This document shows positions 7,338-51,346 of a DNA stretch of 64,000 bases, piece after piece. Each line of letters opens with the position of its first letter. Position 1 is the first letter of the stretch. Position numbers and translations under genes: made by a program. The stretch is from an uncultured Candidatus Rokubacteria bacterium (GTDB taxonomy: Bacteria > Methylomirabilota > Methylomirabilia > Rokubacteriales > CSP1-6). The notes under the pieces were generated by a model, which was not told the origin of the DNA, searched no databases, and saw nothing but the letters and a program-made list of their open reading frames with translations. The DNA lies in assembly GCA_963789955.1 (NCBI GenBank), contig CAWBMV010000034.1, positions 1,184,001 to 1,248,000 on the forward strand. The letters run 5' to 3'.

Positions 7338-9382
7338 TTAGCGCGAGCCGCCCGCGGCCGTCAACACTCCGGTATGGATGGCCCGAACCTCCACCGCGGA
7401 GACGTCGGTCCCGGCGAGCATGCGCAGGGCGATTGGCGCGAGCTCCGCCACCGCGCCACGACCGGCGCCGACGGGACGGGGCCGACCACCCAGGCTCGCA
7501 GCGGTGCCCCGCGCGGATTCACGAATTCGACGACCGCACCGGCCGTCACGCCAAGCCGCGTCGCGACCTCTGTGCTGAGCCGAACTTCGCGTCCACTCTG
7601 GGCGTCGAGCCCGGCACCGGCGATCAGCTCGGACGCGCAGTCGGGTCGCGCGCAGCGACGCCCGCCTCGCCGCGGTGGCAGCGGCATCCGGCGCGCCGCC
7701 GCGTAGCACGACGCCGTAGATCGCCTCCGCGGCCGCTGAAGTGACGTAGCCCTCGGCCACGTCCGCGGCGACACGCTCCGGATCACGCTCGAGCGGGTCG
7801 CCGAAGCCACCGCCGCCGCTCGACTCCATCAGCAGCACGTCACCGAGCTCGAGCGGATATCCGCTCACCTTGCCGGGCAGCGGGGACGATTGGACACGCT
7901 GACCGTTCCGTCGCGACCCAGAAGCGATTGGTCGCGCCGGCCGCGCCACCCGAGACGCCGAAGGGTGGCAGCACCGCTTTCTCGGCGAGCACCGACAGCT
8001 GTGAGCCCGACACCTGGATCCGCACCTCGCGCGTGAGACCGAGCCCGCCGCGCCAGCGCCCGGGCCCGCCCGAATCCTCGCGCAGCGCGGTGCGCTCGAT
8101 GCGCACGGGATAGAGCTGCTCGACGGCCTCGATGGGCTGGAGCGTCGTCATGTCGCTCTCGGTCCACGTGCGCACGGTGTTGCTGCCGTCGCCGCCGTCG
8201 AAGCCGCCGGTGCCGCCGGCCGGGTACTCGTAGAAGATGAAGGTCTCGCCCGTACGCGGATGCGGGCCGCCGACGTAGCAGTGATTGCCGCCGCCCTTGA
8301 GGTCGCCGGCGATCTTGCCGTCGAGCGCCTGGGCGAGCGCGCCCATCACCGCCGACTCCACGCAGTACTTCACCTCGACCATGCCGCCGCACGGCGCGGG
8401 TGGGTTCGCGTTCACGATCGTGCCCGGCGGCGTGATCACCGTGAGCGGACGGAAGGCGCCGGAGTTCACGTCGGAGCCCGGATCGAGGAACGACTTGATG
8501 ATCGTGAAGGCGCCGGTCGGGGCCATGGCCGGACCGACGTTGGTCGGGCCGAGCGTCTGCGGCGAGGTGCCGGCGAGATCCACCGTGATCGTGTCACCGG
8601 CGATGGTGACCTTCGCGCGCACCGTGAGCGGCTCGAGCCGCTCGGTGCCGGCCTCCAGGTGCGCCTCGTAGACGTATTCGCCGGCGCGGAGCCCGCGGAT
8701 GGCGCGGCGCATCCGGCCCTCGGCGCGGTCCATGAGCTCCGCGACGGCGTCGCGGATCGTCGCGGCGCCGTAGCGCGCGACCAGCTCTTCGATCGCGCTC
8801 GGCGGCCTTCCGGCAGGTCCCGAGCATCGCCTGGAAGTCGCCACGTCGCTCGCGAGGCCCGCGCATGTTGCTGAAGAGCAGGTCCAGCGCGGCCTCGTTC
8901 GGCCGACCGCGATCGACGATCCTGATCGGCGGGATGCGGACGCCTTCCTGGAAGATCTCGGTCGCGCGGCCCGAGAGGCTGCCCGGGCTCATCCCGCCCA
9001 CGTCACCCCAGTGCGCGCGCACGACGGGGAAGACGAACAGCTCGCCGTCCGCGAAGAGCGGATAGATCATCGCCACGTCGTTGAGGTGAGTCCCGCCGGT
9101 ATAGGGCTCGTTGTGCAGGAAGATGTCGCCCGGGTGGATGTCGTCGCCGAACTTCTCCCGCACCGCCTTCATCGACCAGGCGACCGGCACGATGTGGAGC
9201 GGATGATCCTGCCCCTTGGACATGGCGACGATCTGAGCGTGGCCGTCCATGAGCACGCAGGAGAAGTCCTCGCCCTCGTAGAGAATCGACGAGAACGCGG
9301 TGCGCACCAGGGTCACGCGCATCTCGCGCACGATCGAGACGAACGCCTCGCGCAGCACCTCGAGGGTGATGGGATCGATCAC
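7338..9382 (-). CDS. Hydantoinase B/5-oxoprolinase subunit with C-terminal extension (frameshifted)
   Basis: IDPITLEV, HLNDV, RAHWGDVGG, EIFQEG, DSGGPGRWRGG, GGGFGDPLERD; several indels. Confidence 0.88.
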
Positions 9383-11427
9383 GCCCTGGTCTCCCGCTCG
9401 AAACGGAGATTGCCGTACTCGTCGACCTCGCCGCGCCACCCCGGGGGAACGACGGTCGTCGCGCCGAACTCCTCGACGATGGCGGGCCCGCGGAGGTGAG
9501 ACCGCTCGGGAAGCCGCTCTCGCTCCCACACCGCACAGTCGTGCGGCGCTCCTGCGAACCACACTGGACGGCGCCCGACCAGCGCGCCGTCGAGCGAGCT
9601 CTCTGCGCTCTGGTGGCGCTCGCTCGACGGCCTGGGGACGAGGCCGTAGGCCGTCAGTCGCGCGTTGACGAGCTCGATCGTGGCGCCCGGGCTCGAATGC
9701 CCGTATGCGCCGAGGTGCTGGCGGTGGAATGCGGCTTCGATCGTGTCGAGCTCGAGCTCGTTCGCGCCGGAGTCGCCGGCCGCCACGTTCAGCTCGAACG
9801 CCTGACCCTGATAGCGCAGATCGAGCGAGCGGACGAGACGCTGCTCCTGCGCGGTGAATCCTTCCAGGCTCAGCTGGTGGCGCGCGGCGTCCTCCATCTC
9901 CCCGAACAGCTCGACCGCGACCGTGAGGCGATCGCGCAGCGGGCCCACGCGCGTCCTGACGTCGTCGTGCTTGATCTGCGAGGCGAGGAGACCGAGCGCC
10001 GAGAAATTCCCGGGATGGCGGGGCACCAGCACGCGCGGAATCCCGATCTCCTGCGCCAGAGCCAGCGCGTGCATCGGTCCGGCGCCGCCGAAGGCGATCA
10101 GGGTGAAATCGCGCGGATCGTGTCCGCGCTGGATCGAGATCTCGCGGATCGCCGACGTCATTCGCGCGACCGCGATCGTGATGACGCCCTCGGCGAGCGT
10201 CTCGACGGTCATCGAGCGCCCGAGGCGCGTGCCGAGCTCGGCAAGGGCGCGGCGGGCGCCCGCGGCGTCGATGGCGATGCTGCCGCCCAGGCGTTTCGTC
10301 GTCCCGATGCGGCCGAGCACGACGTTCGCGTCCGTCACGGTCGGCTCGGTGCCGCCGAGGCCGTAGGCGACGGGACCCGGCGAGGCGCCGGCGCTGCGGG
10401 GCCCGACTTGAAGGCTTCCGTCGACGTCGAGCCAGGCGATCGAGCCGCCCCCCGCGCCGACGCTGTGCATGTCGAGCTGCGGGACCTTGACCGGAAAGGC
10501 GCCGAGCATACCGTCCGACGTGGTCAGCGGCGCGAGATCGCGCACGAGGCACACGTCGGTCGAGGTGCCGCCCATGTCGTAGGTGATGAAGTCGCGCACG
10601 CCGGCGACCTCGCCCACGAAGCACGCCTGGCTGACGCCGCCGGCCGGGCCCGAGAAGATCGTCTTGATCGGCAGTCGCCGGGCTGTCTCCGTCGTCATCA
10701 TGCCGCCGCTCGAGGCCACGGTGAGGACGCCGTGTGCGTAGCCGGTGGCGCGCAGGCGCTCCTCGAGCCCAGCCAGATAGCCGTCCATGATCGGCTGCAG
10801 ATATGCGTTGAGCACGGTCGTCGAGAAGCGCTCGAACTCACGATACTCGGCGACGACATCGGCGGAGCACGACACGGGCAGTTTCGGGTAGCGCCCCTTC
10901 GCGAGATCGGCGACCGCGCGCTCGTGGGCCGGATTCAGATACGCGTGCAGAAGACAGACCGCGAGCGCCTCGGCGCCCGAGGCCGCGGCGGCGTCGAGCG
11001 CGCGCTCGACACTGGCGGGATCGAGCTCCACCAGCACTCCGCCGTCGGCCGCCAGGCGCTCGACGATCTCGAATCGGTGCTTGCGCTCGACGACCGGCTT
11101 GGGACGCACGAACGTCGGCACGAAGAGCGCCGGAATATTGCGCTTGGTGCGGCCGATCTCGATCAGGTCGCGAAAGCCGGCGGTCGTCAGGATCGCCACC
11201 CGCGCGCCGCGCCGCTCGAGCACGGCGTTGGTCCCGACGGTCGTGCCGTGGACGAGCCGGCGCACGTCACGGCCCGCGATGCCGAGCGCCTGAAGGCCGG
11301 CCAGGACCGCGGCCGCTTCGTTACGAGGCTGTGAAGGGACTTTGGTGACGACGACCTTGCCGGTGGCTTCGTCGACCGCGGTCAGATCGGTGAACGTGCC
11401 GCCGACGTCGATCCCGACTATGAACAT
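9379..11427 (-). CDS. Hydantoinase A/5-oxoprolinase subunit
   Basis: GIDVGGTFTD, HGTTVGTNA, SGPAGG, DMGGTSTD, GAGGGSIA. Confidence 0.93.
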   Translation of the reverse strand: MFIVGIDVGGTFTDLTAVDEATGKVVVTKVPSQPRNEAAAVLAGLQALGIAGRDVRRLVHGTTVGTNAVLERRGARVAILTTAGFRDLIEIGRTKRNIPALFVPTFVRPKPVVERKHRFEIVERLAADGGVLVELDPASVERALDAAAASGAEALAVCLLHAYLNPAHERAVADLAKGRYPKLPVSCSADVVAEYREFERFSTTVLNAYLQPIMDGYLAGLEERLRATGYAHGVLTVASSGGMMTTETARRLPIKTIFSGPAGGVSQACFVGEVAGVRDFITYDMGGTSTDVCLVRDLAPLTTSDGMLGAFPVKVPQLDMHSVGAGGGSIAWLDVDGSLQVGPRSAGASPGPVAYGLGGTEPTVTDANVVLGRIGTTKRLGGSIAIDAAGARRALAELGTRLGRSMTVETLAEGVITIAVARMTSAIREISIQRGHDPRDFTLIAFGGAGPMHALALAQEIGIPRVLVPRHPGNFSALGLLASQIKHDDVRTRVGPLRDRLTVAVELFGEMEDAARHQLSLEGFTAQEQRLVRSLDLRYQGQAFELNVAAGDSGANELELDTIEAAFHRQHLGAYGHSSPGATIELVNARLTAYGLVPRPSSERHQSAESSLDGALVGRRPVWFAGAPHDCAVWERERLPERSHLRGPAIVEEFGATTVVPPGWRGEVDEYGNLRFERETRA

Positions 11428-11543
11428 CCGCGAGGCGCGTACGAGAGTTGTTCGGCGCGGGAGCGTGCGAGTTCCATGGCGGCAGATCGTAGCAGATCGT
11501 GACAGCCTCGTGCGGCTAGCCTGACTCTGCGGACTACCCCACG

Positions 11544-11891
11544 TCAGCGACGCCTGCGCCGTTTGGCCCTGGGGCGCACCGGCCATACTTTGAGGATGAT
11601 GAGCAGCCCCACCGTCCCGAGCACCAGGACCACGCCGAGGAGCAAGAACGGCTGCCACTCCGTGCGCCTCCCGGCCGACACCGTGCGTACCTCGAGCGGT
11701 TGAATCGTTGCCGGAGCGCTGGGCGGATGGCGCTTCTCGATGTCGGAGAGGATGCTCCTGATCTCTTCCTTGGTCTCGCGAGAGGACTCCTCCGACTTGC
11801 TGCTCTCTTGAGCGAACGCCGTTGACACGGTGAGCAGTGTTACGACGACGAACGCCGCCGTGGCGAGTGTTCTGACGGTGCCAAGAGCCAT
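11544..11891 (-). CDS. Hypothetical exported protein with C-terminal TM anchor and basic tail
   Basis: Signal peptide (AFA-QE), C-terminal hydrophobic helix followed by RPRAKRRRRR. Confidence 0.6.
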   Translation of the reverse strand: MALGTVRTLATAAFVVVTLLTVSTAFAQESSKSEESSRETKEEIRSILSDIEKRHPPSAPATIQPLEVRTVSAGRRTEWQPFLLLGVVLVLGTVGLLIILKVWPVRPRAKRRRRR

Positions 11892-12048
11892 GACGTCAAG
11901 CGTACGGCCCGCCGTTTGAAGGGCCAGCCATCTTTCGAGGTACTCGCGGCTGCATCACGACCGAACGAGACCGCTAAGCTTGGTAGTCGGCGCCGACCCC
12001 ACTCGGAGCACGCGAGGTGATAGCATCGGCCAAACAGGGAGGCAACCC

Positions 12049-13393
12049 ATGGCCACGAGCGGCGAGGCGATCAGGCACCTCTGGACCCACAAGACGCAGG
12101 ATCATCCCTGGCTCGCCGACGAGGAGCTCGTGATCGAGCGCGCCGAGGGCGTCTACGTCTGGACCGAGCGCGGCAAGAAGCTCATCGACGGCTTCGCCGG
12201 CCTCGCCGTGGTCAACGTCGGTCACGGCCGGCGCGAGATCGCCGAAGCGATCGCCGAGCAGACCGTGCGCCTGGCCTACTACCCGACGACTCGCCAGTTC
12301 TCGAACCGCCCGGCCGCGGAGCTGGCCGCCAAGCTCGCCCGCCTCACGCCGGGCGATCTGGACTACTCGTTCTTCGCGGTCAGCGGGGCCGAGGCCAACG
12401 AGCGCGCCATGCAGATGGCCCGCCACTACTGGCTCGCCTCCGGCAAGCCCGGCAAGCACAAGGTCATCTCGCTGCAGGGCGGCTACCACGGCGGGACGAC
12501 CGGCACCTTCGCGGTCTGCGGGCTGCCGCATCTGACCGCGGCGTACACCGAGCTTCACGTGCCGGGCTTCGCGAAGGTCACGCCGCCGTACCCGTACCGA
12601 GATCGGGGAACCGGGCACCGACGACGAGCTGGTCAAGCGCCGCGCGCGCGAGCTGCGCGAGGCGATCGTGAAGGAAGGGCCGGAGACGGTGTCCGCGGTC
12701 ATCATGGAGCCGGTGATCTCCTCCGGCGGCTTCATCATGCCGCCGATCGGCTGGCTGCGCGCCGTGCGCGCGATCTGCGACGAGCTCGAGGTGCTGATGA
12801 TCGCCGACGAGGTCATCACCGGGTTCGGCCGTACCGGCCGATGGTTCGCCGTCGAGCACGACGGAATCGTCCCCGACCTGATGACCGTGGCCAAGGGCAT
12901 CACCTCCGGCTACATCCCGCTCTCGGCCGCCATCGCGCGGGGTCGGCTCGCGGACGCGTTCCCCGACGACGCCAAGGAGGAGAACGTGCACCCCGGCACG
13001 TACGCGGCGCACCCGGTCGCGTGCGCGGCGGCGCTCGCCAACATCCAGATCATGGAGAAGGACCACCTGATCGAGAACGCCGAGGCGATGGGCGCGCGGC
13101 TCCGCGACGGGCTCCAGCAGGCGGTCGGCAAGAAGCGGATCGTCGGCGAAGTGCGCGGGCGCGGGCTCCTGGTGTGCGCCGAGCTCGTGGAGCCCGACGG
13201 CTCCGGCCGGCCGCTCGACAAGAACAAAGTGGCGAGGCTCGACCGCATGGCGTGGGATCGCGGCGCGATCGTCTACGCGCGCGGCCAGGTCGTCAGGCTC
13301 GCACCGCCGCTCTGCATCACGCCCGCGGAAGTCGACCAGCTCGTGGACGTCGTGGCGGCGAGCATCGGCGAGCTCGAAGCCGAGCTCGTCTAG
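12049..13393 (+). CDS. Class III PLP aminotransferase (frameshift near 12610)
   Basis: [33 protein letters not shown]. Confidence 0.9.
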
Positions 13394-13415
13394 CCCCGAC
13401 TCGCGAGGCGGGAGG

Positions 13416-15067
13416 GTGGTGGACCCCCGCGCTGGAATGCCCGCGGAGCCAGCCATGCTGGCGAACATTCCGCGGCTGATGACGGCGTACTACACGACGC
13501 GGCCTGATCCCTCGCGGCGCGAGCAGAGGGTGGCCTTCGGCACGTCCGGCCATCGCGGCTCGGCGCTCGTCGGCTCGTTCAACGAGGCCCACATCCTCGC
13601 GATCACCCAGGCCATCTGCGAATACCGCCGACGGCAGGACATCGACGGCCCCCTGTTCCTCGGGATCGATACGCACGCCCTCTCGGAGTCGGCCTTCGCC
13701 AGCGCCCTCGAGGTGCTGGCGGCCCACGGGGTCGAGGTCATGATCGACGACCGTGACGGGTACACGCCCACGCCCGTCATCTCGCACGCGATCCTGACGT
13801 ACAACCGCGGCCGCACGAGCGGTCTCGCCGACGGCATCGTCGTGACGCCCTCGCACAACCCGCCCGAGGACGGCGGCTTCAAGTACAACCCGCCGCACGG
13901 CGGACCCGCCGACACTCACGTGACCGGATGGATCCAGGATCGGGCGAACGCGCTCCTCGCCGACGGTCTCGCGGAGGTGGAACGCGTCACGTTCGAGCGC
14001 GCGCGCCGCGCGTCGACGACGCACCGCTTCGACTACATGGGCGCCTACGTCGCCGATCTGGGAAACGTGGTGGATCTGGACATCGTGCGCGGCGCCCAGC
14101 TCAGCCTCGCGGTCGATCCGCTCGGGGGCGCGGGCGTGCACTACTGGTCGATGATCGGTGACCGCTATCGCTTACCGCTGACGGTGGTGAGCGACGTCGT
14201 CGATCCGACCTTCGCGTTCATGACGGTCGACTGGGACGGCAAGATCCGGATGGACTGCTCGTCGCCCTATGCGATGCGGCGACTCATCGGGCTCAAGGAT
14301 CGCTTCGACGTCGCGTGGGCGTGCGATACCGATCACGATCGGCACGGCATCGTGGCGCGAAGCGTCGGGCTCATGAACCCGAACCACTATCTCGCCGTGG
14401 CGATCTCCTACCTGTTCAGCCATCGGCCCGCCTGGCCGCGAGGCGCCGGAATCGGCAAGACGCTCGTGAGCAGCAGCATGATCGATCGGGTCGCCGCCCG
14501 GCTCGGGCGTCCGCTGCTGGAGGTGCCCGTCGGGTTCAAGTGGTTCGTCGACGGGCTCCTCGCCGCGTCGCTCGGGTTCGGGGGCGAGGAGAGCGCAGGG
14601 GCCTCGTTCCTCCGCCGCGACGGCACGGTGTGGACCACCGACAAGGACGGGATCGTTCTCGGCCTCCTTTCCGCGGAGATGACCGCGGTGACCGGGCGCG
14701 ACCCCGGCGAGCTCTACCGCGAGCTCACGGTGGAATTCGGCGAGTGCGCCTACGAGCGGATCGACGCGCCGGCGACGCCCGAGCAGAAGGCGCGGCTCGC
14801 CGAGGCTGTCGCCGGAGCAGATCACGGCCTCCGAGCTCGCGGGTGAGCGGATCACGGCGCGGCTCACGACGGCGCCGGGGAACAACGCGCCCATCGGCGG
14901 GTTGAAAGTGGTCGCTCCGAGCGGCTGGTTCGCAGCACGGCCCTCGGGCACCGAAGATGTCTACAAGCTCTACGCGGAGAGCTTCAAAGGGAAGCGACCA
15001 TCTGCATCGGATCCAGAAGGAGGCGCTGGCGGTCATTCAGAACGTTATCCGCGAGGGCGAGAGCTAA
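13416..15067 (+). CDS. pgm: Phosphoglucomutase (frameshifts in 3' part)
   Basis: [45 protein letters not shown]. Confidence 0.93.
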
Positions 15068-42122: not shown

Positions 42123-42743
42123 TCAGCTCGAGCTCCAGGCGAACGGCGCGAAGTGGCCGTTGTTGCGACCGGACGTGTCGTCCCAGTTGATCCCGAACCC
42201 GTGCATGTGGCCGCGGGAGGCCTTCGCGAGCGCGAGCCGGCGCGCCGCCGGATGCCCCACGTTGTCGAAGTAGATCGGCTCGTCCGGCTTGGCGCCGGCG
42301 ATGCCCTCGATCGCGATGTCGAGCATGCCCGGAATCGATACCGAGCGTCGCATCCCGTTCATCTCGAATGTGATCGGTTTCGTCGCGGCGCCTCCGAAAT
42401 TGCTGATCAGCGGCGCCACCGCCGCCATCGGACCACCGCCCTGGCCGCTGGCGATCGTCGTGAGCGCATCGCGCTGCTCCTTCGACGCGCGCTCGTCCAG
42501 GACGAGTCCCACCGTCCAGTTGCCCTGGATCATCGGACCCGGTGTGTGCAGCAAGACGGCAAAGCTCAGGCCGTCGAGCCGGGTGCTTCCATACTGGCCC
42601 CGATCGACGCGGAACACGAGGCCGGCATCGCAGTAGCCCTTGGTCGGCCGTGCCGCGAGGCCCGAGGTCGGGCACGGACACACGGAATCGCAGCTGCACG
42701 CTTCGCAGTATTCGCCGCTGATCTGCCACTGAACGTTCGCCAT
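42123..42743 (-). CDS. DUF1326 domain protein
   Basis: Own RBS AGGAGG; YCEACSCDSVCPC, DERASKEQRDAL, FAPFAWS. Confidence 0.85.
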   Translation of the reverse strand: MANVQWQISGEYCEACSCDSVCPCPTSGLAARPTKGYCDAGLVFRVDRGQYGSTRLDGLSFAVLLHTPGPMIQGNWTVGLVLDERASKEQRDALTTIASGQGGGPMAAVAPLISNFGGAATKPITFEMNGMRRSVSIPGMLDIAIEGIAGAKPDEPIYFDNVGHPAARRLALAKASRGHMHGFGINWDDTSGRNNGHFAPFAWSSS

Positions 42744-42862
42744 CAGCTTCCTCCTGGCCGTCGGCCGACACGGCGCATCTGCTTCGCGGTCGCCCTCGGC
42801 TGCACGCTCAACGTACATCAGGTATGCCTCGCGTGCAGCCTTCGGCGTCACCGGGGGCCCGG

Positions 42863-43682
42863 CTACATCGGGAGGCTGCTCGGCTCTCAACAGGATCGCG
42901 AAGCTGGGTCGGACCACGACGGCGAGGCCGAGGAGCACGAGGACGATCCCGGTCGTCCGCGCGATCCACTCGCCGCGCGGGAGGAGTTTTTCCGCGGCCA
43001 CGATGGCGGCGATGAGCAGGACCCAGGCCAGACTCATGGCGCCGGCCACCACCAGCACGAGCATGAGCGCCCAGCAGCAGCCCAGACAGTAGAGGGCGTG
43101 AGCACGGCCCATCGCCAGGCCGCCTTGCCACCCCTCGCGCCAGTGGCCGAACAGAAACCCGAGAGGACTCCGACAGTGGCGCAGACACACCCGTTTGAGC
43201 GGCGAGAGCTGAAAGATCCCCGCGCCGATGAGGACAGCGGCGACGACGTAGGCCAGCGCGCCGCTGCTGATGGCGCCGAGGGCCACACTGGCGAAATAGA
43301 CCGGAACGCCCGTCAGGGCCCAGAGGCCGAGGTACATCAGCGTGAACGATCCGACTCGAATCGCCTTCAGCGCGGTGCCCGCGTTGCGCTGGGTCGCGGC
43401 GTAGAGGCCGATCATCGGGAGCGCGCTCGGCAGCATCATCGCCGTCATCATCACGGACCACGCGGTCACGTACGCCAGACCGTCGGCGAACGTCGGCCGC
43501 ATCGCCATCTCCATGCCGGCCATGTCGTCCATCCCCATCGGCGAGAGCAGGACGTGCGCCCACGCGGCGAGCATGATGACGACCAGGAGCACGGTCGTGA
43601 GCACCGAAGCAGGAGTGCGAGCGGTCAGCTCAGAGGGATCGGGGACCGAGTCGCCAGGGCCGCCGGCGTGCATCGCGGACAC
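42863..43682 (-). CDS. DUF2182 metal-binding integral membrane protein
   Basis: WSVMMTAMMLPS, QLSPLKRVCLRHCRSP, YCLGCCWALM; stop probably masked by an indel. Confidence 0.85.
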
Positions 43683-43713: not shown

Positions 43714-44604
43714 CTACCCGATGCGGGCGCGCACGAAGTCGCCGATGCCGGCGATGGCCTTCTCGGCCTCGTCCAGGATCGGCAAGAACCAGTGCCAGAC
43801 GTGGACCATCGCGGGCCACTCCTCGACCTTGACGTCCACGCCGGCCGCCCGGGCGCGCGCGCCGAGGCCGATCGCGTCGTCGAGCAGCACTTCGTCGCTG
43901 CCCACGTGGATCAGCAGCGGCGGCAGGTTGCGCAGGTCGGCGTAGAGCGGCGAGACCAGCGCCGCCTTGCGGTCGCCGGCCCCGACGTAGGCCTGCGCCA
44001 GCGCCTCGACACCGTCGCGGGTGACGATCGGATCCGCGGCGGCCTTGGTGGCGTAGCTGGCGCCGCTGCAGGTGAGATCGACCCACGGCGAGATGCAGAC
44101 GCCGCCGGCGGGCCGTGGCAGTCCGCGGTCGCGGAGCGCGAGGAGCGTCGCCACCGTGAGGCCGCCGCCCGCCGAGTCGCCGCCCAGCACGATCCGGGCG
44201 GGCGCGATGCCGCGCGCCAGCAGCCACTGATACGCCGCGACGGCGTCATCCAGCGCGGCCGGAAAGGGATTCTCGGGCGCGAGCCGGTAGTCGAGCAGCA
44301 GCGCTCGGGTGCCGGCCGCCCGCGCGATGGCGGCGGCGAGATGACGGTGCGAGCGGGGCGAGCCGATCGCGTAGCCGCCGCCGTGGAAGTAGAGCACGAC
44401 CGCGTCGGTTCGGACGCCTGGAGGCGTGAGCCACTCGGCGGTTCGCTCCGGCGCCTTCACGACCTCGATCGCGACGTCGGCGGGCGTGGGGAACACGCGC
44501 TCGGCGCGGTCGTACTGGGCGCGGCGCTCCGCCAGGGTCAGGGAGCTCGACGGCGGAAGCTTCGCCAGGTGATCTCGGACGGCTCGGATTCCACGCGCGG
44601 TCAT
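43714..44604 (-). CDS. HSL-family alpha/beta hydrolase (esterase/lactonase)
   Basis: HGGG, DYRLAPE, GDSAGG, EVLLDD, HVW. Confidence 0.92.
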   Translation of the reverse strand: MTARGIRAVRDHLAKLPPSSSLTLAERRAQYDRAERVFPTPADVAIEVVKAPERTAEWLTPPGVRTDAVVLYFHGGGYAIGSPRSHRHLAAAIARAAGTRALLLDYRLAPENPFPAALDDAVAAYQWLLARGIAPARIVLGGDSAGGGLTVATLLALRDRGLPRPAGGVCISPWVDLTCSGASYATKAAADPIVTRDGVEALAQAYVGAGDRKAALVSPLYADLRNLPPLLIHVGSDEVLLDDAIGLGARARAAGVDVKVEEWPAMVHVWHWFLPILDEAEKAIAGIGDFVRARIG

Positions 44605-45365
44605 GTGCCCTCCAGCTTCGCGATCGCCGGGAAGACCTCGGACTGAGCCCGGTGCAGGTCCTCGGCGAAGTCGACTTCGGTCCACGGCAACCCGGTGACC
44701 CCCACGGCCTCGACGCGCTGCCGGCTCACCAGGAGGTGCAGCGCGTCCTCATATTCGCAGATCCCCTGGCTGTCCTCGATGACCTGCTCGAGCAGGCCGA
44801 TCAGCTCACGGCCGGCCTCGGGCCCGCACTTGAAGAAGCCGATGCCCTCGCCGACGCGATCCCACGCCCTGGGGACCACCTTCTTGCCGAGCGCGATGAC
44901 CCGGTTGTCCTGCACGTAGATCTTCACTTCCTCGCCCGTGTCGGCAAAGCCCTCGTCGATCAGGAACGCCTGCGCGGCCGGCGACTCGACGAGCCGTCGC
45001 AGGAATTCACGCGGGAACACGACGTCGGCGTCCATGATGAGGGTCGGCTCGCGCGTGATGACGTCGCGCGCGCAGTAGAGCGAGAGCGACGAGCCCTTCT
45101 GATAGGCCGGGTTGTCGATGCACTCGATCGTCATTCCCGATGGAGCCGTCGCCGCGAGCGCTCGCACCTGATCGGCGCAGTGTCCGACGACGATCACGAC
45201 GTGTCGCACCCCGACCGCGTGGAGCGCGTCGAGCATGCGCGCCAGGATCGCGCGGCCGCCGACCGGAAGGAGCGACTTCTGCGTGTGATCGGTCAGGGGC
45301 GCCAGCCGTCGGGCGACGCCGGCGGCCAGGATGATGGCCGTCACCTTACGCTCTGGTTCGTTCAT
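44601..45365 (-). CDS. Phosphocholine/phosphonate cytidylyltransferase family (LicC/PntC-like)
   Basis: ILAAGVARRL..QKSLL, MDADVVF, EEVK, GEGIG, EYED, WTEVDFAEDL. Confidence 0.85.
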   Translation of the reverse strand: MNEPERKVTAIILAAGVARRLAPLTDHTQKSLLPVGGRAILARMLDALHAVGVRHVVIVVGHCADQVRALAATAPSGMTIECIDNPAYQKGSSLSLYCARDVITREPTLIMDADVVFPREFLRRLVESPAAQAFLIDEGFADTGEEVKIYVQDNRVIALGKKVVPRAWDRVGEGIGFFKCGPEAGRELIGLLEQVIEDSQGICEYEDALHLLVSRQRVEAVGVTGLPWTEVDFAEDLHRAQSEVFPAIAKLEGT

Positions 45366-45470
45366 ACCTTCTCGGTGCCTATAGTATCCTGTGCGTAACC
45401 GAATCGACGCAGGATCGAGACCGAAGTTCGACCGCATGGCCCGTGGTCAGTGACGGGGGATTGACGCGAA

Positions 45471-46271
45471 TTGAGCAGGACGACGACCCGGCGATCTCAG
45501 ACGCCTCTCGAGCGAGTCCACGAGCCGTCTCAGCAGCGGGACGTGTTTCAGCGCGACGGCTTCGTGGTGGTTCCAGGGCTCTTCGACGCGCAGGAAATCG
45601 CGCGCATTTCCGAATGGACCGACGAGCTCGAGCGCAGCCCCGAAGTGCCCGGGCGGTCCATGAAGTATTACGAGCCGAGCTTGCTGCGTCCGGGCGAGCG
45701 CGTGCTCCAGCGCATCGAGAACTTCTGCCCGTTCCACGACGGCTTCGCCGGACTCTGCGACGGCGACAAGCTTCGCGGCTCGGTGTCACGACTCCTCGGC
45801 GAGCCGGCCGTTCTGTTCAAGGACAAGATCAACTTCAAGCTCCCGGGCGGCGACGGCTTCAAGCCGCATCAGGACCAGCAGGCCGGCTGGAGCACCTACG
45901 CGGATCTGTTCGTCACCGCCATGGTCAGCATCGACTCCACGACCGCCCAGAACGGCTGCCTCGAGCTGTGCGCCGGGCAGCACACGCGCGGGCTGATCGG
46001 CGAAGAGTGGAAGCCGCTGACCGACGACGACATGCGCCGCCTCGGCGGGCGCGCGGTGCCGACGCAGCCCGGTGACGCGGTGTTCTTCGACTCCTACACG
46101 CCGCACGCCTCGGCCCCGAATCTCACCGCCGAGCGCCGGCGCGTGCTCTACATCACCTACAACCGCCTGTCGGCCGGCGACCACCGCGTGCAGTACTACG
46201 CCGACAAGCGCAAGAGCTTCCCGCCCGACATCGAGCGAGATCCCAATCGGACCTACACGTTTCGTGTCTGA
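45471..46271 (+). CDS. PhyH-family Fe(II)/2OG dioxygenase (PhnY-like)
   Basis: LFKDKINFKLPGGDGFKPHQD (HxD), PHASAPN, RRVLYITY. Confidence 0.85.
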   Translation: MSRTTTRRSQTPLERVHEPSQQRDVFQRDGFVVVPGLFDAQEIARISEWTDELERSPEVPGRSMKYYEPSLLRPGERVLQRIENFCPFHDGFAGLCDGDKLRGSVSRLLGEPAVLFKDKINFKLPGGDGFKPHQDQQAGWSTYADLFVTAMVSIDSTTAQNGCLELCAGQHTRGLIGEEWKPLTDDDMRRLGGRAVPTQPGDAVFFDSYTPHASAPNLTAERRRVLYITYNRLSAGDHRVQYYADKRKSFPPDIERDPNRTYTFRV

Positions 46272-46289
46272 GTCACGACTCGAGGAACT

Positions 46290-46490
46290 ATGATCCTGCG
46301 TATCGCGCTCGTCCTCGTGGCCTGTCTGTCGATCGCCTCGCCGGCCTATGCCTATCTCGATCCGGGCACCGGCAGCATGCTGATCTCGGCCGTGCTCGGC
46401 GTGGCGGCGGCCGTCGCGCTCGCGGTGAAGATGTTCTGGTACCGGCTGATCGGGTTCTTCCGCGGCAAGAGGCCGGCAGCGGACAAGTAG
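46290..46490 (+). CDS. 66-aa signal peptide + YLDPGTGS + TM + basic tail protein
   Basis: RBS GAGG; AYA cleavage-like site, YLDPGTGS, hydrophobic helix, RGKR. Confidence 0.82.
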   Translation: MILRIALVLVACLSIASPAYAYLDPGTGSMLISAVLGVAAAVALAVKMFWYRLIGFFRGKRPAADK

Positions 46491-46536
46491 CGCCGACGAC
46501 GCGACGGCCGGTGCCCAACCGAGTGTCGCGCCGTTC

Positions 46537-47690
46537 ATGAGCATGTGGCAGGACTGGAAGAGCTTCCGTCGCTTCCGACGACTTCCGCCCGGCGACCGGA
46601 ACATCGTCTTCTACTCCGAGACGCATCAGGATTGGCACCATCTGCAGCCGCTCATCGAGTTCTTGACCGAGCGATTGTCGCGGCCGTGTGCCACGTCACC
46701 TCGGAGCCGATCGTGCCGCTGCCGTCGGCGCCCGGCCTGCACGGCTTCCGCATCGGCCCCGGCGCGATCTGCACCTGGTTCTTCCAGACGATCAAGGCGG
46801 ACGTGATGGTCCTGACGATGCTCGATCTGCAGAACTTCCACCTCAAGCGCTCGCTCCATCCCGTCCACTACGCCTACGTGTTCCACAGCATGGGCAGCAC
46901 GCACATGGTGGATCACGCGAACTCGTACGATCACTACGACAGTCTCCTGTGCGTCGGCCCGCATCACGTCGACGAGATCCGCCGGCGCGAGGCGCTGCAC
47001 CGCCTGCCGGCCAAGCATCTCTTCGCGCACGGCTACCCGCGGCTCGAGCGGCTCGTCGCGCTGGCGGCCGCTGAGCCGCCTCGCTCCGCGCATACGACCG
47101 CGCTGCTGGCGCCGACGTGGGGCGACCAATCGATCCTGCACGTCTGCGGTGAGCCGTTGATCGCCGCGTTGCTGGGCGCCGGCATCCGCGTCATCCTGCG
47201 TCCGCACTACCAGACGACGCGCCTGGCGCCGGGGCTGATCGAAGGTCTGGTCGCGCGATTCGGCGCGGATCCAGGCTTCCGTCACGTCACCCGGATGGAA
47301 GAGAGCGCCTCGTTGTTCGAGTCCGACCTTCTCATCTGCGACTGGTCCGCGATGGCGATCGAGTACGCGTTGGGGCTCGGCAAGCCCGTCCTCTTCGTCG
47401 ACGTCCCCCCTCGCATCCGTAACCCGAACTATGCGGAGCTCGGTCTGGAGCCGATGGAGATACGTATCCGTCGCGAGCTCGGCGCGGTGCTTCCGCTCGA
47501 CCGGGTGGAGGAGGCGCCGCGCTACGTGGCCGAGCTGCTTCGCGACCCCGCCGACCTGCGCAAGCGCAACGCGGAGCGGCGAGAGGCCTGGGTGTTCAAC
47601 TTCGGCCGCAGCGTCGAGGCGGGGGCGCGAGAGATCGCGCGCATCGCCGACGAGCGGGCCGGCATCGGAGCGCGCGGCCGACAGGCGTGA
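46537..47690 (+). CDS. CDP-glycerol glycerophosphotransferase (TagB/TagF) family protein (frameshift near 46685)
   Basis: FHSMGSTH, GYPR, LAPTWG, RPH, LICDWSAMAIEY, KPVLF. Confidence 0.8.
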
Positions 47691-49483
47691 GCGACAGATC
47701 ACGGCTGTTCCGGTGGCTCGGCTGGTTCGCCCTGGCCAATGCGGGCCTCCTCGCGATCATCGGCCTGCGCTATCTGTGGCTCTACGCGGCGCTCGGCCGC
47801 ACGGTGTCCTGGAGCTACGCGCTCGTGGCCTTCGTCGGCCACATGAGCGCGCTCGCCTGCCTCCCGCTCCTGGTGCTGCTCCTCCCGGTCGCCGCGCTGA
47901 TGCCACGGCCGCGTCTGATGCTGCCGCTCGGCGTCGGGCTCGCGAGCGTCGGCGTCGCCTTCGTCGTGCTCGACAGCCTCGTGTTCGCCGAGAACCGCTA
48001 CCACTTGAACGTCCTGACCTTCAGCCTGCTCGAGCCGCAGACGTGGGCGTTTCTGGCGCTCTACTTCGTCGTGGCGCTGGCGATCGAGTCGATGCTGGCC
48101 GGCTGGATCTGGCAGCGGACGGCGCGGCCGGCGACGCGTCGAATCGGGCGATATCTCGCGGTCGGCCTGGCCGGATGCTTCGTCGCCGCGCACCTCGTTC
48201 ACGCGTGGGGCTCGGCGCACTACGACGTGTCGGTGACCGCGTTCACCCGCTACCTGCCGCTCTACTATCCACTCCGCAACCCGGGACTGATGGCGCGGCT
48301 CGGTCTCATCGATCGGGCGGGCGCGCGCGAACGCGGAGTCGGCGACGCGCTCGACCGGGCGGAGGCCGGCGAGCTGATCTATCCGCTGGCGCCCATGCGA
48401 TGTGACCCGCGCACGCCCGAGCTCAACGTGTTGCTGGTCGTGATCGATGCCATGCGCGCCGATGCCTTGACGCCGGAGGTCGCGCCGAGGCTCTCCGGAC
48501 TCGCGCGCGGCGGGATCGAGTTCGGCCGCCACTACAGCGGCGGCAACTCGTCGCGGGCCGGGATGTTCTCTCTGTTCTACGCGATCCCCGCGACGTACTT
48601 CGACGAGTTCGCCGCTCGCGCCCGGCCGCCCGTGCTGATGGACGTGATCCGACAGCACGGCTACCAGCTCGGGATCTTCGCCAGCTCGCCGATCTATCGC
48701 CTCGTGGATCTCGATCGCACCGCCTTCGCCCACGTGCCCAATCTGCGCATGGAGACGAGCTCGGGTGAAGGGTCGAGCGGGCGGGATCGCGTGCTGACCG
48801 GCGAGTGGCGCGAGTGGCTCGGCCGGCGGGATTCGGCACGGCCATTCTTCGGCTTTCTCTACTACAACGCCGCGGTGTCCGTCGAGCCACCGCCGGACTA
48901 TCATCCGTCGATCCCGCGGCCGACCCGCGCTTCGAAGGCGCTGCAGTCGCGCAACGAGCGCTACCTCGCCGCGCTGCACTACGTCGACTCGCTGCTGGGG
49001 CAGGTGCTCGACGATCTCGTACGTCGGAAGCTCCTCGATCGCACGATCGTGATCGTCACGTCCGACCACGGGATCGAGTTCGACGAGAACCGGCTCGGCT
49101 TCAAGGGCCACGGCACCGCCTACAGCGAGTACCAGATGCGCACGCCGCTCGTGGTGCGCTGGCCCGGTCGGCCGCCCGGAAAGGTCACCCGCCGTACGTC
49201 CCACAACGACATCGCGCCGACCCTGCTGACGGAGCTGTTCGGGTGCGCCAATCCGCCGTCCGACTACGCGAGCGGGTCGAGCCTCTTCTCGGGCACTCAG
49301 TGGAGCTGGCTCGTCGTCGCCAGCTATCGCGAGTACGCCGTGGTCGAGCCGGAGCGCGTGACCGTGGTGTTCCCCGCCGGCTACGAAGTTCGCGTTCAGG
49401 ACTATCAGCTCGCGCGCACCCAGACGCCACCCCGCGACGCGCTGCGCGCCGCGATGCTGGAGATGAGCCGGTTCTATCGTTGA
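47687..49483 (+). CDS. yejM: YejM/PbgA-like (DUF3413 + sulfatase-fold) inner membrane protein
   Basis: WFALAN, DSLVFAENRYHLN, 5 TM, LPLYYPL, IDAMRAD, HYSGGNSS, TSDHG, GHG. Confidence 0.82.
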   Translation: MSDRSRLFRWLGWFALANAGLLAIIGLRYLWLYAALGRTVSWSYALVAFVGHMSALACLPLLVLLLPVAALMPRPRLMLPLGVGLASVGVAFVVLDSLVFAENRYHLNVLTFSLLEPQTWAFLALYFVVALAIESMLAGWIWQRTARPATRRIGRYLAVGLAGCFVAAHLVHAWGSAHYDVSVTAFTRYLPLYYPLRNPGLMARLGLIDRAGARERGVGDALDRAEAGELIYPLAPMRCDPRTPELNVLLVVIDAMRADALTPEVAPRLSGLARGGIEFGRHYSGGNSSRAGMFSLFYAIPATYFDEFAARARPPVLMDVIRQHGYQLGIFASSPIYRLVDLDRTAFAHVPNLRMETSSGEGSSGRDRVLTGEWREWLGRRDSARPFFGFLYYNAAVSVEPPPDYHPSIPRPTRASKALQSRNERYLAALHYVDSLLGQVLDDLVRRKLLDRTIVIVTSDHGIEFDENRLGFKGHGTAYSEYQMRTPLVVRWPGRPPGKVTRRTSHNDIAPTLLTELFGCANPPSDYASGSSLFSGTQWSWLVVASYREYAVVEPERVTVVFPAGYEVRVQDYQLARTQTPPRDALRAAMLEMSRFYR

Positions 49484-51010
49484 GGGCGGGCCCGCTCGGC
49501 GTGCTGCTCCTCGGCGCGATGTGTGCGGCGGCCGCGCCGGTCTCCGCGGAGCAGGCGGGGAGTGGAATCGTCCGGGTGGTCGGCGACCGCTTGAATCTCG
49601 TCATTGCGCTCGAAGGGGCCACTCCCGTCGAGTGGCGGGCCTGCCATCCATCGTGTACGAACGCCGACGCGGGCACCGGCACCGCCGTGTGGCTGATCGG
49701 TGCGGGCGATCCGGCGATCCGGCTGGTCGTGCGCGATCTGGATCCTCCGCTGGATCTGCAAGGTCTGCGATTCTCCGTCAGCCTCACCGAGGACGAGCGC
49801 GCGCGCATCGCGACCTTCCAGGCCGACTTGCCGGTGCCCGGCGTCCGCCTGGTGAAGTCGTTCGAGGTCTCGCGCTACGGCTACGAAGTCGTCATGACCG
49901 CGCGCATGATCGGACCGAACGCCGCCGCGTTCATGTCGGGCCGGCGACTCACGCTCGAGCTCGGTGCCGTCCGCGGTCTGGCCCCGCCGCCGGCGGCGGG
50001 CTTCGCCGCGATGCTCGAGCGGATGAGCCGCGTCATCGTCACCGGCCGGGTGCGCACGGTCCGGGACGACAGCCGTGAGCCGAGGACGCTCCGCCCGGGC
50101 GACTGGGTCGGATTCCGCAGCCGCTTCTGGGCGTTGCTCGTTCGCTCGGACGGCGCCGGCGACCTCGAGGCGCAGCCCGGCGCGGATGCCCCGCTGGCGC
50201 TGACGGAGGAGCGCGGCCGGCTCTCCTGGCGCGACACGTTCTATGCGGGTCCGCTCGAGCACGCCACGTTGACCCGGGCCGATCCGCGGCTCGGCCGGCT
50301 GCTCTTCTCCGGGCTCTGGTTCTGGCTGCGCCCGCTGAGCTTCGGGCTCCTGTTCCTCCTGCGCGGGCTGACCGAGCTCATCGGACATCCGGGCTTCGCC
50401 ATCATCGCCCTCGCGGTGTCGGTCAAGATCCTCTTGCTTCCGCTGACCATCGTGGCCGAACGACTGCAGGAGCAGGTGAACGCCACGCAGGCGCGGCTCC
50501 AGCCCGGCATCGACGCGATCAAGGCCGCGTACCGTGGTGAGGAGCGCACGCGGCGCACGATCGCGCTCTACCGCGAGCACGGCGTGCACCCGCTCTACAC
50601 CTTGAAGAGCCTGGCCGGATTCATGATCCAGCTTCCGGTGTTCATCGCCGTGTTCGACATGCTGGCCGAGAATTTCGATCTCCAGCACCAATCGTTCGCC
50701 TGGATCCGGGATCTGTCGCGCCCGGATGCGCTGGCGGGGCTGCCCGTGTGCGTGCCGTTCTTCGGCTGTGACCTGAACTTGCTGCCGTTCCTGATGAGCG
50801 GCGTGTCGCTGGCGACCCTGCTGCGGTTCCGCTCGTCGGTCCTCACGCCGCCGCTGGTCCGCCGCCAGCGGCGAAATCTGATGGCCATCACGGCCCTGTT
50901 CTTCCTGCTCTTCTACACGTTCCCGGCGGCGCATGGTCCTCTACTGGACCTCGACGAACTCCTTCCAGCTCTTGAGCCAGGAGCTCGGGAGGTTATGGCG
51001 CCGGGCGTGA
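49480..51010 (+). CDS. yidC: Membrane protein insertase YidC paralog (3' frameshift near 50930)
   Basis: TTG start overlapping the yejM stop; AIIALAVSVKILLLPL, IQLPVFIA, WIRDLSRPD, LLPFLM, MVLYWTSTN. Confidence 0.85.
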
Positions 51011-51031
51011 ATGCGATACCCTGAATGAAGC

Positions 51032-51331
51032 GTGAACGCTGCTCGAGCATGGACGCTGGCGTCGTTCGTCGTCGTCGCGTCGTGGCATGCCGCGTCGGCC
51101 ATGGCGCAGCCGAGCCCCGCCGGCGTGTCGAAGGAGCGCGTCACCTTCCAGAGCGATCACCTCACCCTCGTCGGCTTTCTCTTCAAACCTGACGGACCCG
51201 GCCCGTTTCCCGGGCTCATCTGGAATCACGGCAGCGAGAAGAGCCCCGGGACGATGCGTTCCGGCGCTCCTGGCCGCCACCGACGAGACCCTGCAGGGCG
51301 CCGGGCGCCCCGATCCGTCTTGACCTCCTGA
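51032..51331 (+). pseudogene. Truncated exported alpha/beta hydrolase (dienelactone hydrolase-like N-terminus)
   Basis: VTFQS..LVGFLFKPDGPGPFPGLIWNHGSE, then homology ends near 51250. Confidence 0.6.
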
Positions 51332-51346
51332 GAACGCCCGCCTAGG

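Follow-up and report, generated by a model that had tools for sequence, protein, structure and literature searches.

Gene content and layout of the locus

The window analysed here is a 64,000-nucleotide stretch of a contig from an uncultured soil bacterium of the Candidatus Rokubacteria (GenBank assembly GCA_963789955.1, contig CAWBMV010000034.1). Between positions 44601 and 51010 it carries a candidate envelope-modification cassette of six genes. A nucleotidyltransferase (NT) lies on the minus strand. Divergent from it, on the plus strand, lie a PhyH-family oxygenase, a 66-aa membrane peptide (the micro-protein), a TagF-like phosphotransferase, a YejM-like protein and a second YidC (YidC2). 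Families were called with Pfam and NCBIfam profiles against their gathering or curated cut-offs.

The NT is of the LicC/PntC/IPCT type of nucleotidyl(cytidylyl)transferases (NTP_transf_3, 64.6 bits). Its longest open reading frame (ORF) spans 44601..45437, with a likely start at M25 (45365, MNEPER...); its orthologues start at MNEP. The divergent intergenic region (45366..45470) contained neither a sigma-70-like promoter nor an Rfam match, the promoter/terminator scan and the Rfam scan both returning zero hits. On the plus strand follow the PhnY*-like Fe(II)/2-oxoglutarate oxygenase of the PhyH family, with a TTG start (45471..46271; PhyH, 95.1 bits), and the micro-protein with its YLDPGTGS motif (46290..46490), which was recognized from its translation. 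Next come the TagF-like phosphotransferase (46537..47690; Glyphos_transf PF04464, 27.0 bits with a cut-off of 22.1, scored on the ORF 46545-47690) and the YejM/PbgA homologue (47687..49483; DUF3413, 172.4 bits; Sulfatase, 123.8 bits). YidC2 (49480..51010, uncorrected ORF 49480-51024; 60KD_IMP PF02096, 73.2 bits) has a TTG start that overlaps the YejM-like stop.

The packed six-gene layout described in an earlier note on this DNA was confirmed from the sequence. The micro-protein gene is set apart from its PhyH neighbour by 18 nt (46272-46289) and from its TagF-like neighbour by 46 nt (46491-46536). Further along come 4-nt overlaps between the TagF-like and YejM-like genes (47687-47690) and between the YejM-like and yidC2 genes (49480-49483). 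The G+C content at third codon positions (GC3) was of the coding type in all six frames (0.84-0.91, with 0.91 for the micro-protein), in a window with 61-71% G+C. Contigs from a public RNA-library run (X15) covered 45576-51094 in eight pieces; DNA carry-over is possible, and expression is not claimed.

Frame changes and assembly quality

Two genes of the cassette change frame in the window. The TagF-like gene starts at the ATG at 46537 and switches near 46685, its body lying in the frame of 46545. YidC2 switches near 50930, and its true C-terminus (MVLYWTSTNSF...RRA, stop 51008-51010) is in another frame. The orthologues of both genes are intact, those of the TagF-like gene being 388-412 aa long. 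Relative to the window, the contigs of all four public runs (4/4) had one additional base at 46683-46685 and one base fewer at 50930/50931. In the window's own assembly, the canonical yidC, a 2-aminoethylphosphonate (AEP) transaminase-like gene and the C-terminus of a PepM fusion are likewise out of frame. The assembly is indel-prone. Because the orthologues are intact, the public runs lack both changes and other genes of the assembly are affected too, we read the frameshifts as assembly indels and not as decay.

The canonical yidC (420-2112 of L001, G000:C36:31786-35346) was spread over three frames, 420-815, 647-1003 and 943-2112. The broken AEP-transaminase-like gene lies at C12:372291-373348, and the break in the PepM-NT fusion also concerns the C-terminus.

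Distribution and synteny of the cassette

YidC2 orthologues (64-89% identity) were found in 8 of 41 related genomes, each of which also had a weaker canonical YidC match. The order NT / PhyH, micro-protein, TagF-like, YejM-like, YidC2 was preserved in all loci examined, up to the contig ends. In G014, a cassette-less genome of the same genus, the flanking alpha/beta hydrolase directly abuts rpsA. The block is thus acquired or shed in one piece. Across the phylum, 33 of 251 genomes had the TagF-like gene (the unpublished genome G235 included), all of one family and belonging to 8 of 68 genera.

A scan with the TagF-like alignment, using one genome per species, gave 57 loci, 23 of the Rokubacteria type and 34 non-Rokubacterial. 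They ranged over Rokubacteria, Gammaproteobacteria, Chloroflexota, Actinomycetota and Planctomycetota, with differing supply modules. The nearest non-Rokubacterial locus (L061) was that of a cultured gammaproteobacterium, Elongatibacter sediminis CH-27. The earlier note had made its proposal depend on these families recurring together elsewhere, and they did so, by synteny in related genomes and in Elongatibacter.

Within the Rokubacteria-type loci, the YejM-like gene was present in 20/23 and YidC2 in 14/23, the remainder stopping at a contig edge. L044 kept all parts, with its YejM-like gene relocated upstream. PhyH was found in 17/23; the region was not covered in L053, L054 and L057. Because NT and PhyH are missing from part of the 23 loci, the invariant core is formed by the micro-protein, the TagF-like enzyme, the YejM-like protein and YidC2, and NT and PhyH are more loosely attached.

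The cassette was also carried, at 71-75% identity, by five contigs whose bins are assigned to Verrucomicrobiia, Acidoferrum, the archaeon Nitrosotalea or Dormiibacterota (L046, L049, L052, L055, L058). The copies of L046, L049, L052 and L055 nest inside the Rokubacterial YidC2 clade. All five are probably mis-binned.

The micro-protein and the TagF-like enzyme

The micro-protein consists of a signal-peptide-like helix ending in AYA, the YLDPGTGS motif, one transmembrane helix and a basic tail. It matched no Pfam or NCBIfam family. In the micro-proteins of Chloroflexia, the motif directly follows the start codon. The gene is under purifying selection, with a pN/pS of about 0.2 in a crude count over 22 distinct Rokubacterial copies. 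There were 571 close relatives, and a profile search returned 14428 representatives at E<=0.001 and 3985 at E<=1e-10, with the best 150 all being 62-161 aa long.

The micro-protein is fused N-terminally to TagF-like enzymes in the six clusters P0125-P0130, whose proteins are 427-449 aa long; four of these clusters match PF04464. Given these natural fusions to TagF-like N-termini, the micro-protein is most likely an outward-facing membrane anchor of the TagF-like enzyme, and not an acceptor. Two further clusters, P0122 and P0124, were rejected as fusions, being read-through artefacts. A structure model of the fusion P0126 was confident for the TagF part; its YLDPGTGS segment (pLDDT 37-53) was uninformative on contacts. 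A search of longer proteins found no TagF-like proteins fused to YidC or sulfatase domains at E<=1e-10, which is weak evidence.

An AlphaFold model of the TagF-like orthologue from L019 (pLDDT 88.6) had TagF as its best fold in the PDB (3l7i/3l7j, E 7e-12 to 8e-12, TM 0.57-0.62), followed by Cps3D and TarL. Two histidines, H118 and H228 (L019 numbering), were invariant in 18 sequences. They may correspond to the two catalytic histidines of TagF, H444 and H584. PF04464 was also matched by the TagF-like relatives in L069, L073, L092 and L068. The gene context suggests a donor other than CDP-glycerol or CDP-ribitol.

The YejM-like protein and YidC2

The YejM-like protein combines the five-helix DUF3413 domain with a periplasmic domain of the alkaline phosphatase superfamily; no other gene of the genome encodes DUF3413. 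Its homology to Escherichia coli YejM (5i5h) is full-length (residues 5-565, 226.7 bits, E 5e-66). On NF038282 (YejM/PbgA/LapC) it scored 277.1 bits, under the curated cut-off of 825. The motifs VVIDAMRAD, GGNSS and TSDHG are kept, whereas E. coli YejM has AGRG at the place of TSDHG. DH motifs were preserved in the sulfatase-fold partners of all nine sequences aligned. The second-best solved relative of the periplasmic domain was a phosphonate monoester hydrolase (4upk, E 1.5e-12). The accessory spread of the TagF-like partner (33/251 genomes) and of YidC2 (8/41) suggests that the protein is not a housekeeping regulator of lipopolysaccharide (LPS). No hidden YidC domain was detected in the sulfatase-fold partners when six of them were compared with six YidCs by hhalign (probability 0.1%).

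YidC2 exceeded the cut-offs of PF02096 (73.2 versus 35 bits) and TIGR03592 (85.1 versus 84.3). As the earlier note had observed, the rpmH-type locus that normally houses yidC is absent from the window. It lies on contig C36, where rnpA-yidD-yidC-mnmE holds a canonical copy with 211 bits; the cassette copy, with 76 bits, is thus not the genome's only yidC. The genome of Elongatibacter also carries a canonical YidC. A tree was built from 24 rows: 16 Rokubacterial YidC2 selected as full-length, the Elongatibacter YidC2 and the copy of L076, together with canonical YidCs, five from the order and one from Elongatibacter. Partial or duplicate sequences (L040-L042, L044, L045, L047, L050, L051, L053, L054, L056, L058-L060, L063) were excluded. 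This phylogeny, which had been named as a check, placed the cassette copies in a separate clade on one side of a branch (SH-aLRT 99; long branches, quick search). The Elongatibacter YidC2 grouped with the Rokubacterial ones (98) and not with its own canonical YidC.

At the TM2 position of the positive residue in the hydrophilic groove of YidC, Lys was found in YidC2 of the window, L018 and L019 and in the canonical copy. L076 has Arg, and the Elongatibacter YidC2 (L061:12082-13332) has Asn. A role of YidC2 as a dedicated insertase is plausible.

The putative head-group enzymes

The closest solved relatives of the NT were the AEP-specific PntC of Treponema denticola (Tde PntC-AEPT, 6pd1, E 2.5e-12), the inositol-1-phosphate cytidylyltransferase (IPCT) 2xme and LicC 1jyk. 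In Tde-PntC, Glu104 and Glu196 contact the AEP amine (PMC6697681). The NT keeps the equivalent of Glu196 (EYEDAL), where the Elongatibacter NT has Glu too, and carries Asp at that of Glu104.

For PhyH, the best NCBIfam family was the methylphosphonate hydroxylase PhnY* (NF052437, 180.7 bits), and the next family reached 34.9 bits. We regard the oxygenase as related to PhnY*, not as a member of that family. The iron triad HxD...H is present (PHQD and TPHAS, aligned to EvdO2). Homologues of PhnY* enzymes usually hydroxylate the carbon adjoining phosphorus (PMC8942020). NT and PhyH stood together only in the Rokubacterial and Elongatibacter clusters.

A probable link to phosphonates

The Elongatibacter locus reads NT, PepM-NT fusion, Ppd, PEMT/ICMT/LmtA-type membrane methyltransferase, AEP transaminase, micro-protein (YLDPSTGS), TagF-like, YejM-like, YidC2 and PhyH. 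Its PepM-NT (393.5 bits, cut-off 319.6) and Ppd (413.5, cut-off 312.5) scored above their cut-offs, and the AEP transaminase scored 357.6 (cut-off 360.8). Identities to the window's proteins were 65% for the micro-protein, 50% for TagF-like, 44% for YejM-like, 36% for YidC2, 61% for PhyH and 35% for NT. The PhyH orthologue stands inside an AEP cluster, and the window's head-group module (NT and PhyH) is common only to this cluster.

In 9 of the 34 non-Rokubacterial loci, PepM and Ppd lay beside the TagF-like gene, mostly together with an Fe-ADH, which points to 2-hydroxyethylphosphonate as a possible product. Across the 34, a sulfatase-fold membrane protein was found in 22, this type of NT in 28 and the micro-protein motif in 10; a YidC gene was present only in L061 and L076. 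The TagF-like family thus accompanies membrane enzymes of the sulfatase fold in general, and the modules that supply its head group are exchangeable.

In L071-L096 (e.g. L079:3432-15686, L092:4435-10182), an NT and a PPDK-like protein precede the TagF-like gene, and methyltransferases and a membrane protein of the sulfatase fold are often present as well. This is a probable kinase-fed version of the cassette machine in Acidimicrobiia, Phycisphaerae and Planctomycetota. In L069 (6396-12681) and L067 (164-6512), the TagF-like gene is flanked by homologues of ATP sulfurylase and pyruvate kinase, by a micro-protein (AHA|YTDPGTGA) and by a membrane protein of the sulfatase fold; this is a third kind of supply module.

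The search of the genome for pepM and ppd suggested by the earlier note found both on contig C22, unlinked to the cassette (PepM-NT 376.6 bits, Ppd 295.5 bits). There (L038, G000:C22:572000-591999, 9264-13657), PepM is fused to NTP_transf_3 and lies with Ppd and an Amidohydro_2 protein; no aminotransferase or Fe-ADH adjoins them. No PepM was found near the cassette, either in the window or in the 23 Rokubacteria-type loci.

Proposed function and alternatives

Established are the six genes with the families to which they belong, the fact that they come and go together, the second YidC and the PepM context of the relatives, and from them we infer the function. On balance, this conserved accessory cassette likely loads a small CMP-activated head group, most probably C1-hydroxylated AEP, onto an envelope molecule; we favour this reading with moderate confidence. 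The phosphonate head group proposed in the earlier note draws its support from the Elongatibacter cluster and from the PepM-linked TagF-like relatives.

The AEP would come from the unlinked PepM-Ppd route or from soil uptake. The PhnY*-like oxygenase would add the hydroxyl group, and the PntC/LicC-type NT would couple the product to CMP. The micro-protein, with its N-terminus out, one helix and its tail in, would tether the TagF-like enzyme to the membrane. At the cytoplasmic face, this enzyme would take the phosphono group off its CMP donor and place it on a membrane-bound acceptor, with release of CMP as with TagB/TagF. Once the loaded carrier had reached the outer leaflet, the YejM-like protein, whose Ser/Thr nucleophile and metal motifs are intact, would deliver the head group to its last acceptor in the periplasm, be it lipid A, a glycan or a lipid. 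This step is modelled on EptA, LtaS and OpgB, which use phospholipid donors. As for YidC2, it would serve to insert the procoat-like micro-protein, and the YejM-like protein may be a further substrate; alternatively, it might aid the crossing more directly. Of the relay that had been suggested before, the CMP/CDP donor, the cytoplasmic TagF-like step and the periplasmic sulfatase-fold step fit the gene anatomy; the micro-protein as acceptor is disfavoured by the six fusion clusters.

Several observations weigh against this reading, above all against its phosphonate part. No PepM match at E<=1e-60 was found in 18 of the 33 cassette genomes of the phylum, among them the 95-99% complete G013, G023, G136, G235, G134, G006 and G140. 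PepM was present in 15/33 cassette genomes versus 44/126 cassette-less genomes of the same family, a comparison among kin that are not independent (the PepM tallies include the unpublished genomes G235 and G076). The absence of PepM from many cassette genomes implies that either AEP is salvaged, for which only the NT is needed, or the cargo is not a phosphonate. No phosphonatase PhnX exceeded the cut-off in five genomes tested (0/5), no AEP importer was identified, and the cassette encodes no flippase. PhyH is missing from L046, L048 and L063 although upstream DNA is present. The NT is adjacent in only 8/23 Rokubacteria-type loci and was not found in 8 loci with at least 7.6 kb of upstream DNA. 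It has Asp, like LicC, at the position of PntC Glu104, and its best NCBIfam match is IPCT (99.4 bits). The PhnY* score of PhyH is far under the cut-off of 500. Beside the TagF-like gene, 21 of the 34 non-Rokubacterial loci have an NT and a PPDK-like protein (1000-1370 aa, with PPDK_N and PEP-utilizer swivel domains) and 2/34 have pyruvate kinase and ATP sulfurylase; the last 2/34 were too short for typing.

An AEP transaminase exceeded the cut-off in 4/5 PepM-less cassette genomes. It was not counted as support, its neighbours being glutamine-synthetase-like and DMGDH/GcvT-like genes and not phn genes. In L105 (3420-12241; G013:C99), from a PepM-less genome, the aminotransferase scores above two cut-offs for AEP transaminases (398.4 and 325.5 bits) and is flanked by a glutamine-synthetase-like gene and an FAD oxidase/GcvT fusion, again not by phn genes.

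Some of these points would fit the same machine with a phosphate-ester cargo. Phosphoethanolamine, phosphocholine, inositol phosphate, phosphoglycerate or a similar compound would be carried as a CDP-alcohol, and PhyH would hydroxylate the head group or the acceptor. The 18 PepM-less cassette genomes, the replacement of PepM by PPDK-like kinases or by pyruvate kinase with ATP sulfurylase in 23/34 loci, and the IPCT match and LicC-like Asp of the NT all speak for such a cargo. So does an enzyme of the LicC/IPCT type in Caulobacter, which activates phosphoglycerate (PMC12275187). We nevertheless consider a phosphate ester possible but less probable. PhyH scores five times higher on PhnY* than on any other curated family, its 61% identical orthologue lies inside a full AEP cluster, the cassette has no phospho-alcohol kinase, and NT and PhyH occur together only in the Rokubacterial and Elongatibacter clusters.

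Alternatively, lipid synthesis could be complete in one step: the micro-protein-anchored TagF-like enzyme would make the final phosphono- or phospholipid, with the YejM-like protein and YidC2 serving transport or envelope homeostasis, as proposed for PbgA/YejM. The full-length YejM/PbgA homology, which includes the lipid-binding five-helix domain, is in line with this, as is the PEMT/ICMT/LmtA-type methyltransferase of the Elongatibacter cluster, which suggests a lipid-linked head group. Burkholderiales clusters with the same head-group genes are also predicted lipid makers (PMC8942020). This explanation is unlikely, since the periplasmic domain still has its motifs for metal binding and for the nucleophile, which are gone from E. 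coli YejM, and the sulfatase-fold partners of 9/9 aligned sequences have DH motifs, all of which speaks for catalysis.

A cassette that feeds on phosphorus, its sulfatase-fold domain hydrolysing environmental phosphonate or phosphate esters and its oxygenase starting C-P cleavage, would agree with the 4upk match and with the work of PhnY-type oxygenases in oxidative phosphonate catabolism (PMC8942020), but it is highly improbable given that a PhnZ-type partner is missing, that the NT, the TagF-like transferase and YidC have no catabolic role, and that related clusters are biosynthetic (PepM, Ppd). The two frame changes could also mean that the genes are pseudogenes or that their adjacency is functionally meaningless, which we can hardly credit: all four public runs lack both changes, other genes of the assembly are out of frame too, the gene order is kept at 64 to 91% identity and into Gammaproteobacteria, and the micro-protein has a pN/pS of about 0.2.

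The transfer scheme can be extended, speculatively and with low confidence. The micro-protein-anchored TagF-like enzyme, the YidC-like protein and the YejM/LtaS-type enzyme might form one trans-membrane relay, in which the YidC groove, beyond inserting proteins, would bring the head-group-loaded carrier, a lipid or the YLDPGTGS tail of the peptide, across the membrane. Such flippase-free export of small phospho(no) head groups might be used by thousands of bacterial lineages with exchangeable supply modules.

Flanking genes

The NT stop and the likely start of an alpha/beta hydrolase (Abhydrolase_3) overlap as ATGA at 44601-44604 on the minus strand. This hydrolase is retained in the cassette-less G014, and in G015 it lies on the opposite side of the cassette. 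At 51011-51346, before rpsA, two genes survive only as remnants: ~100 codons from the start of a gene for a secreted hydrolase of ~280 aa (51032-51331), and the closing codons of a response-regulator gene. Both genes are whole in L016, L018 and L019, so the window's genome has a deletion here. At 42123-43682 on the minus strand, PpoB2/DUF2182 and DUF1326 form a single 519-aa ORF; in L016, L019 and L020 they are two separate genes (270 and 206-229 aa). The amidohydrolase downstream of rpsA is 37% identical to one near the Elongatibacter cluster. It was not counted as part of the cassette, as it stays where the cassette is absent, and it is unrelated to the amidohydrolase beside PepM.

Significance and comparison with known systems

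That phosphonates undergo nucleotidyl activation and that sulfatase genes occur near pepM has already been published (PMC6697681; PMC8942020). The 2019 PntC paper called the steps after C-P bond formation enigmatic (PMC6697681). In a literature search of main texts, we found none that joined TagF-like/Glyphos_transf proteins, YejM-type proteins, YidC or a micro-peptide to phosphonate tailoring, phosphonoglycans or pepM, and none that joined sulfatase, LicD or cytidylyltransferase genes with the Prochlorococcus pepM clusters. The cassette offers concrete candidates for the missing phosphonate-surface transferases, and outside Rokubacteria its form also recurs in Gammaproteobacteria, Chloroflexota, Actinomycetota and Planctomycetota. 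With Elongatibacter sediminis CH-27, a cultured and non-pathogenic carrier of the full version exists, and the idea is directly testable. The cassette also ties a very large, unnamed family of 60-110-aa membrane peptides (3985 representatives at E<=1e-10) to a functional context, and it holds a YejM relative that looks enzymatic and a YidC paralogue bound to one pathway. If most carriers salvage AEP, it would tie soil phosphonate pools to cell-surface chemistry.

The Pnt pathways share with the cassette a head-group module of a LicC/PntC-type NT and a 2-oxoglutarate oxygenase (PMC6697681; PMC8942020), and a cell-surface destination is inferred in both. The seven-gene Burkholderiales_CDP-OH core, predicted to make 1-hydroxy-AEP lipids, resembles the Elongatibacter cluster in its Ppm-PntC, Ppd, AEP transaminase, 2-oxoglutarate oxygenase and second PntC (PMC8942020). 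The head-group half of the cassette copies this 1-hydroxy-AEP core, whereas the transfer half differs. Known or predicted Pnt clusters use LicD-like or CDP-alcohol phosphatidyltransferases; in the cassette there is a TagF-like enzyme with its micro-protein anchor, accompanied by a YidC paralogue and a YejM of the enzyme type. A further difference is that PepM is unlinked in the window's genome and was not found in 18/33 cassette genomes.

TagB/TagF/TarL and Cps3D are similar to the TagF-like enzyme in the PF04464 match, in TagF being the best fold and in APTW- and RPH-type motifs with two invariant His. Phosphotransfer with CMP as leaving group, as in TagB/TagF/TarL, is the expected chemistry. 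The identity is only 13-14%, and the cassette enzyme, with ~390 aa, lacks the membrane-binding N-domain of TagF, being anchored by a separate or fused micro-peptide. Unlike the TagB/TagF/TarL systems, the cassette has no TagGH-type exporter or LCP ligase nearby, and its donor is probably a CMP-phosphonate instead of CDP-glycerol.

The YejM-like protein shares its architecture, a polytopic part with a periplasmic alkaline-phosphatase-superfamily domain, with EptA/MCR-1, LtaS, OpgB and PbgA/YejM, and its nucleophile and metal motifs are as in the active transferases. E. coli YejM, in contrast, lacks the DH pair and is an LPS regulator, whereas the YejM-like protein is accessory and paired with the TagF-like enzyme and YidC2.

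In the Lic pathway (LicB, LicA, LicC, LicD) of Streptococcus pneumoniae and Haemophilus, choline is salvaged for surface decoration. The cassette as proposed would likewise use a salvaged small amine head group, LicC-type activation and transfer to envelope glycans. A phosphonate would bypass the LicA kinase, which matches the minimal set of NT and oxygenase. The cassette differs in having no LicD and no identified importer, and in a relay via the TagF-like and YejM-like enzymes.

Finally, small N-out proteins such as M13 procoat and Pf3 coat are inserted by YidC only, and second YidC paralogues exist. The micro-protein has a procoat-like topology, and the short segment that faces outward contains an invariant Asp. 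The YidC core is retained in YidC2, as is the groove Lys in its Rokubacterial copies. YidC2 differs from other YidC paralogues in travelling with a biosynthetic cassette and in forming its own clade, in which the Elongatibacter copy carries Asn in the groove.

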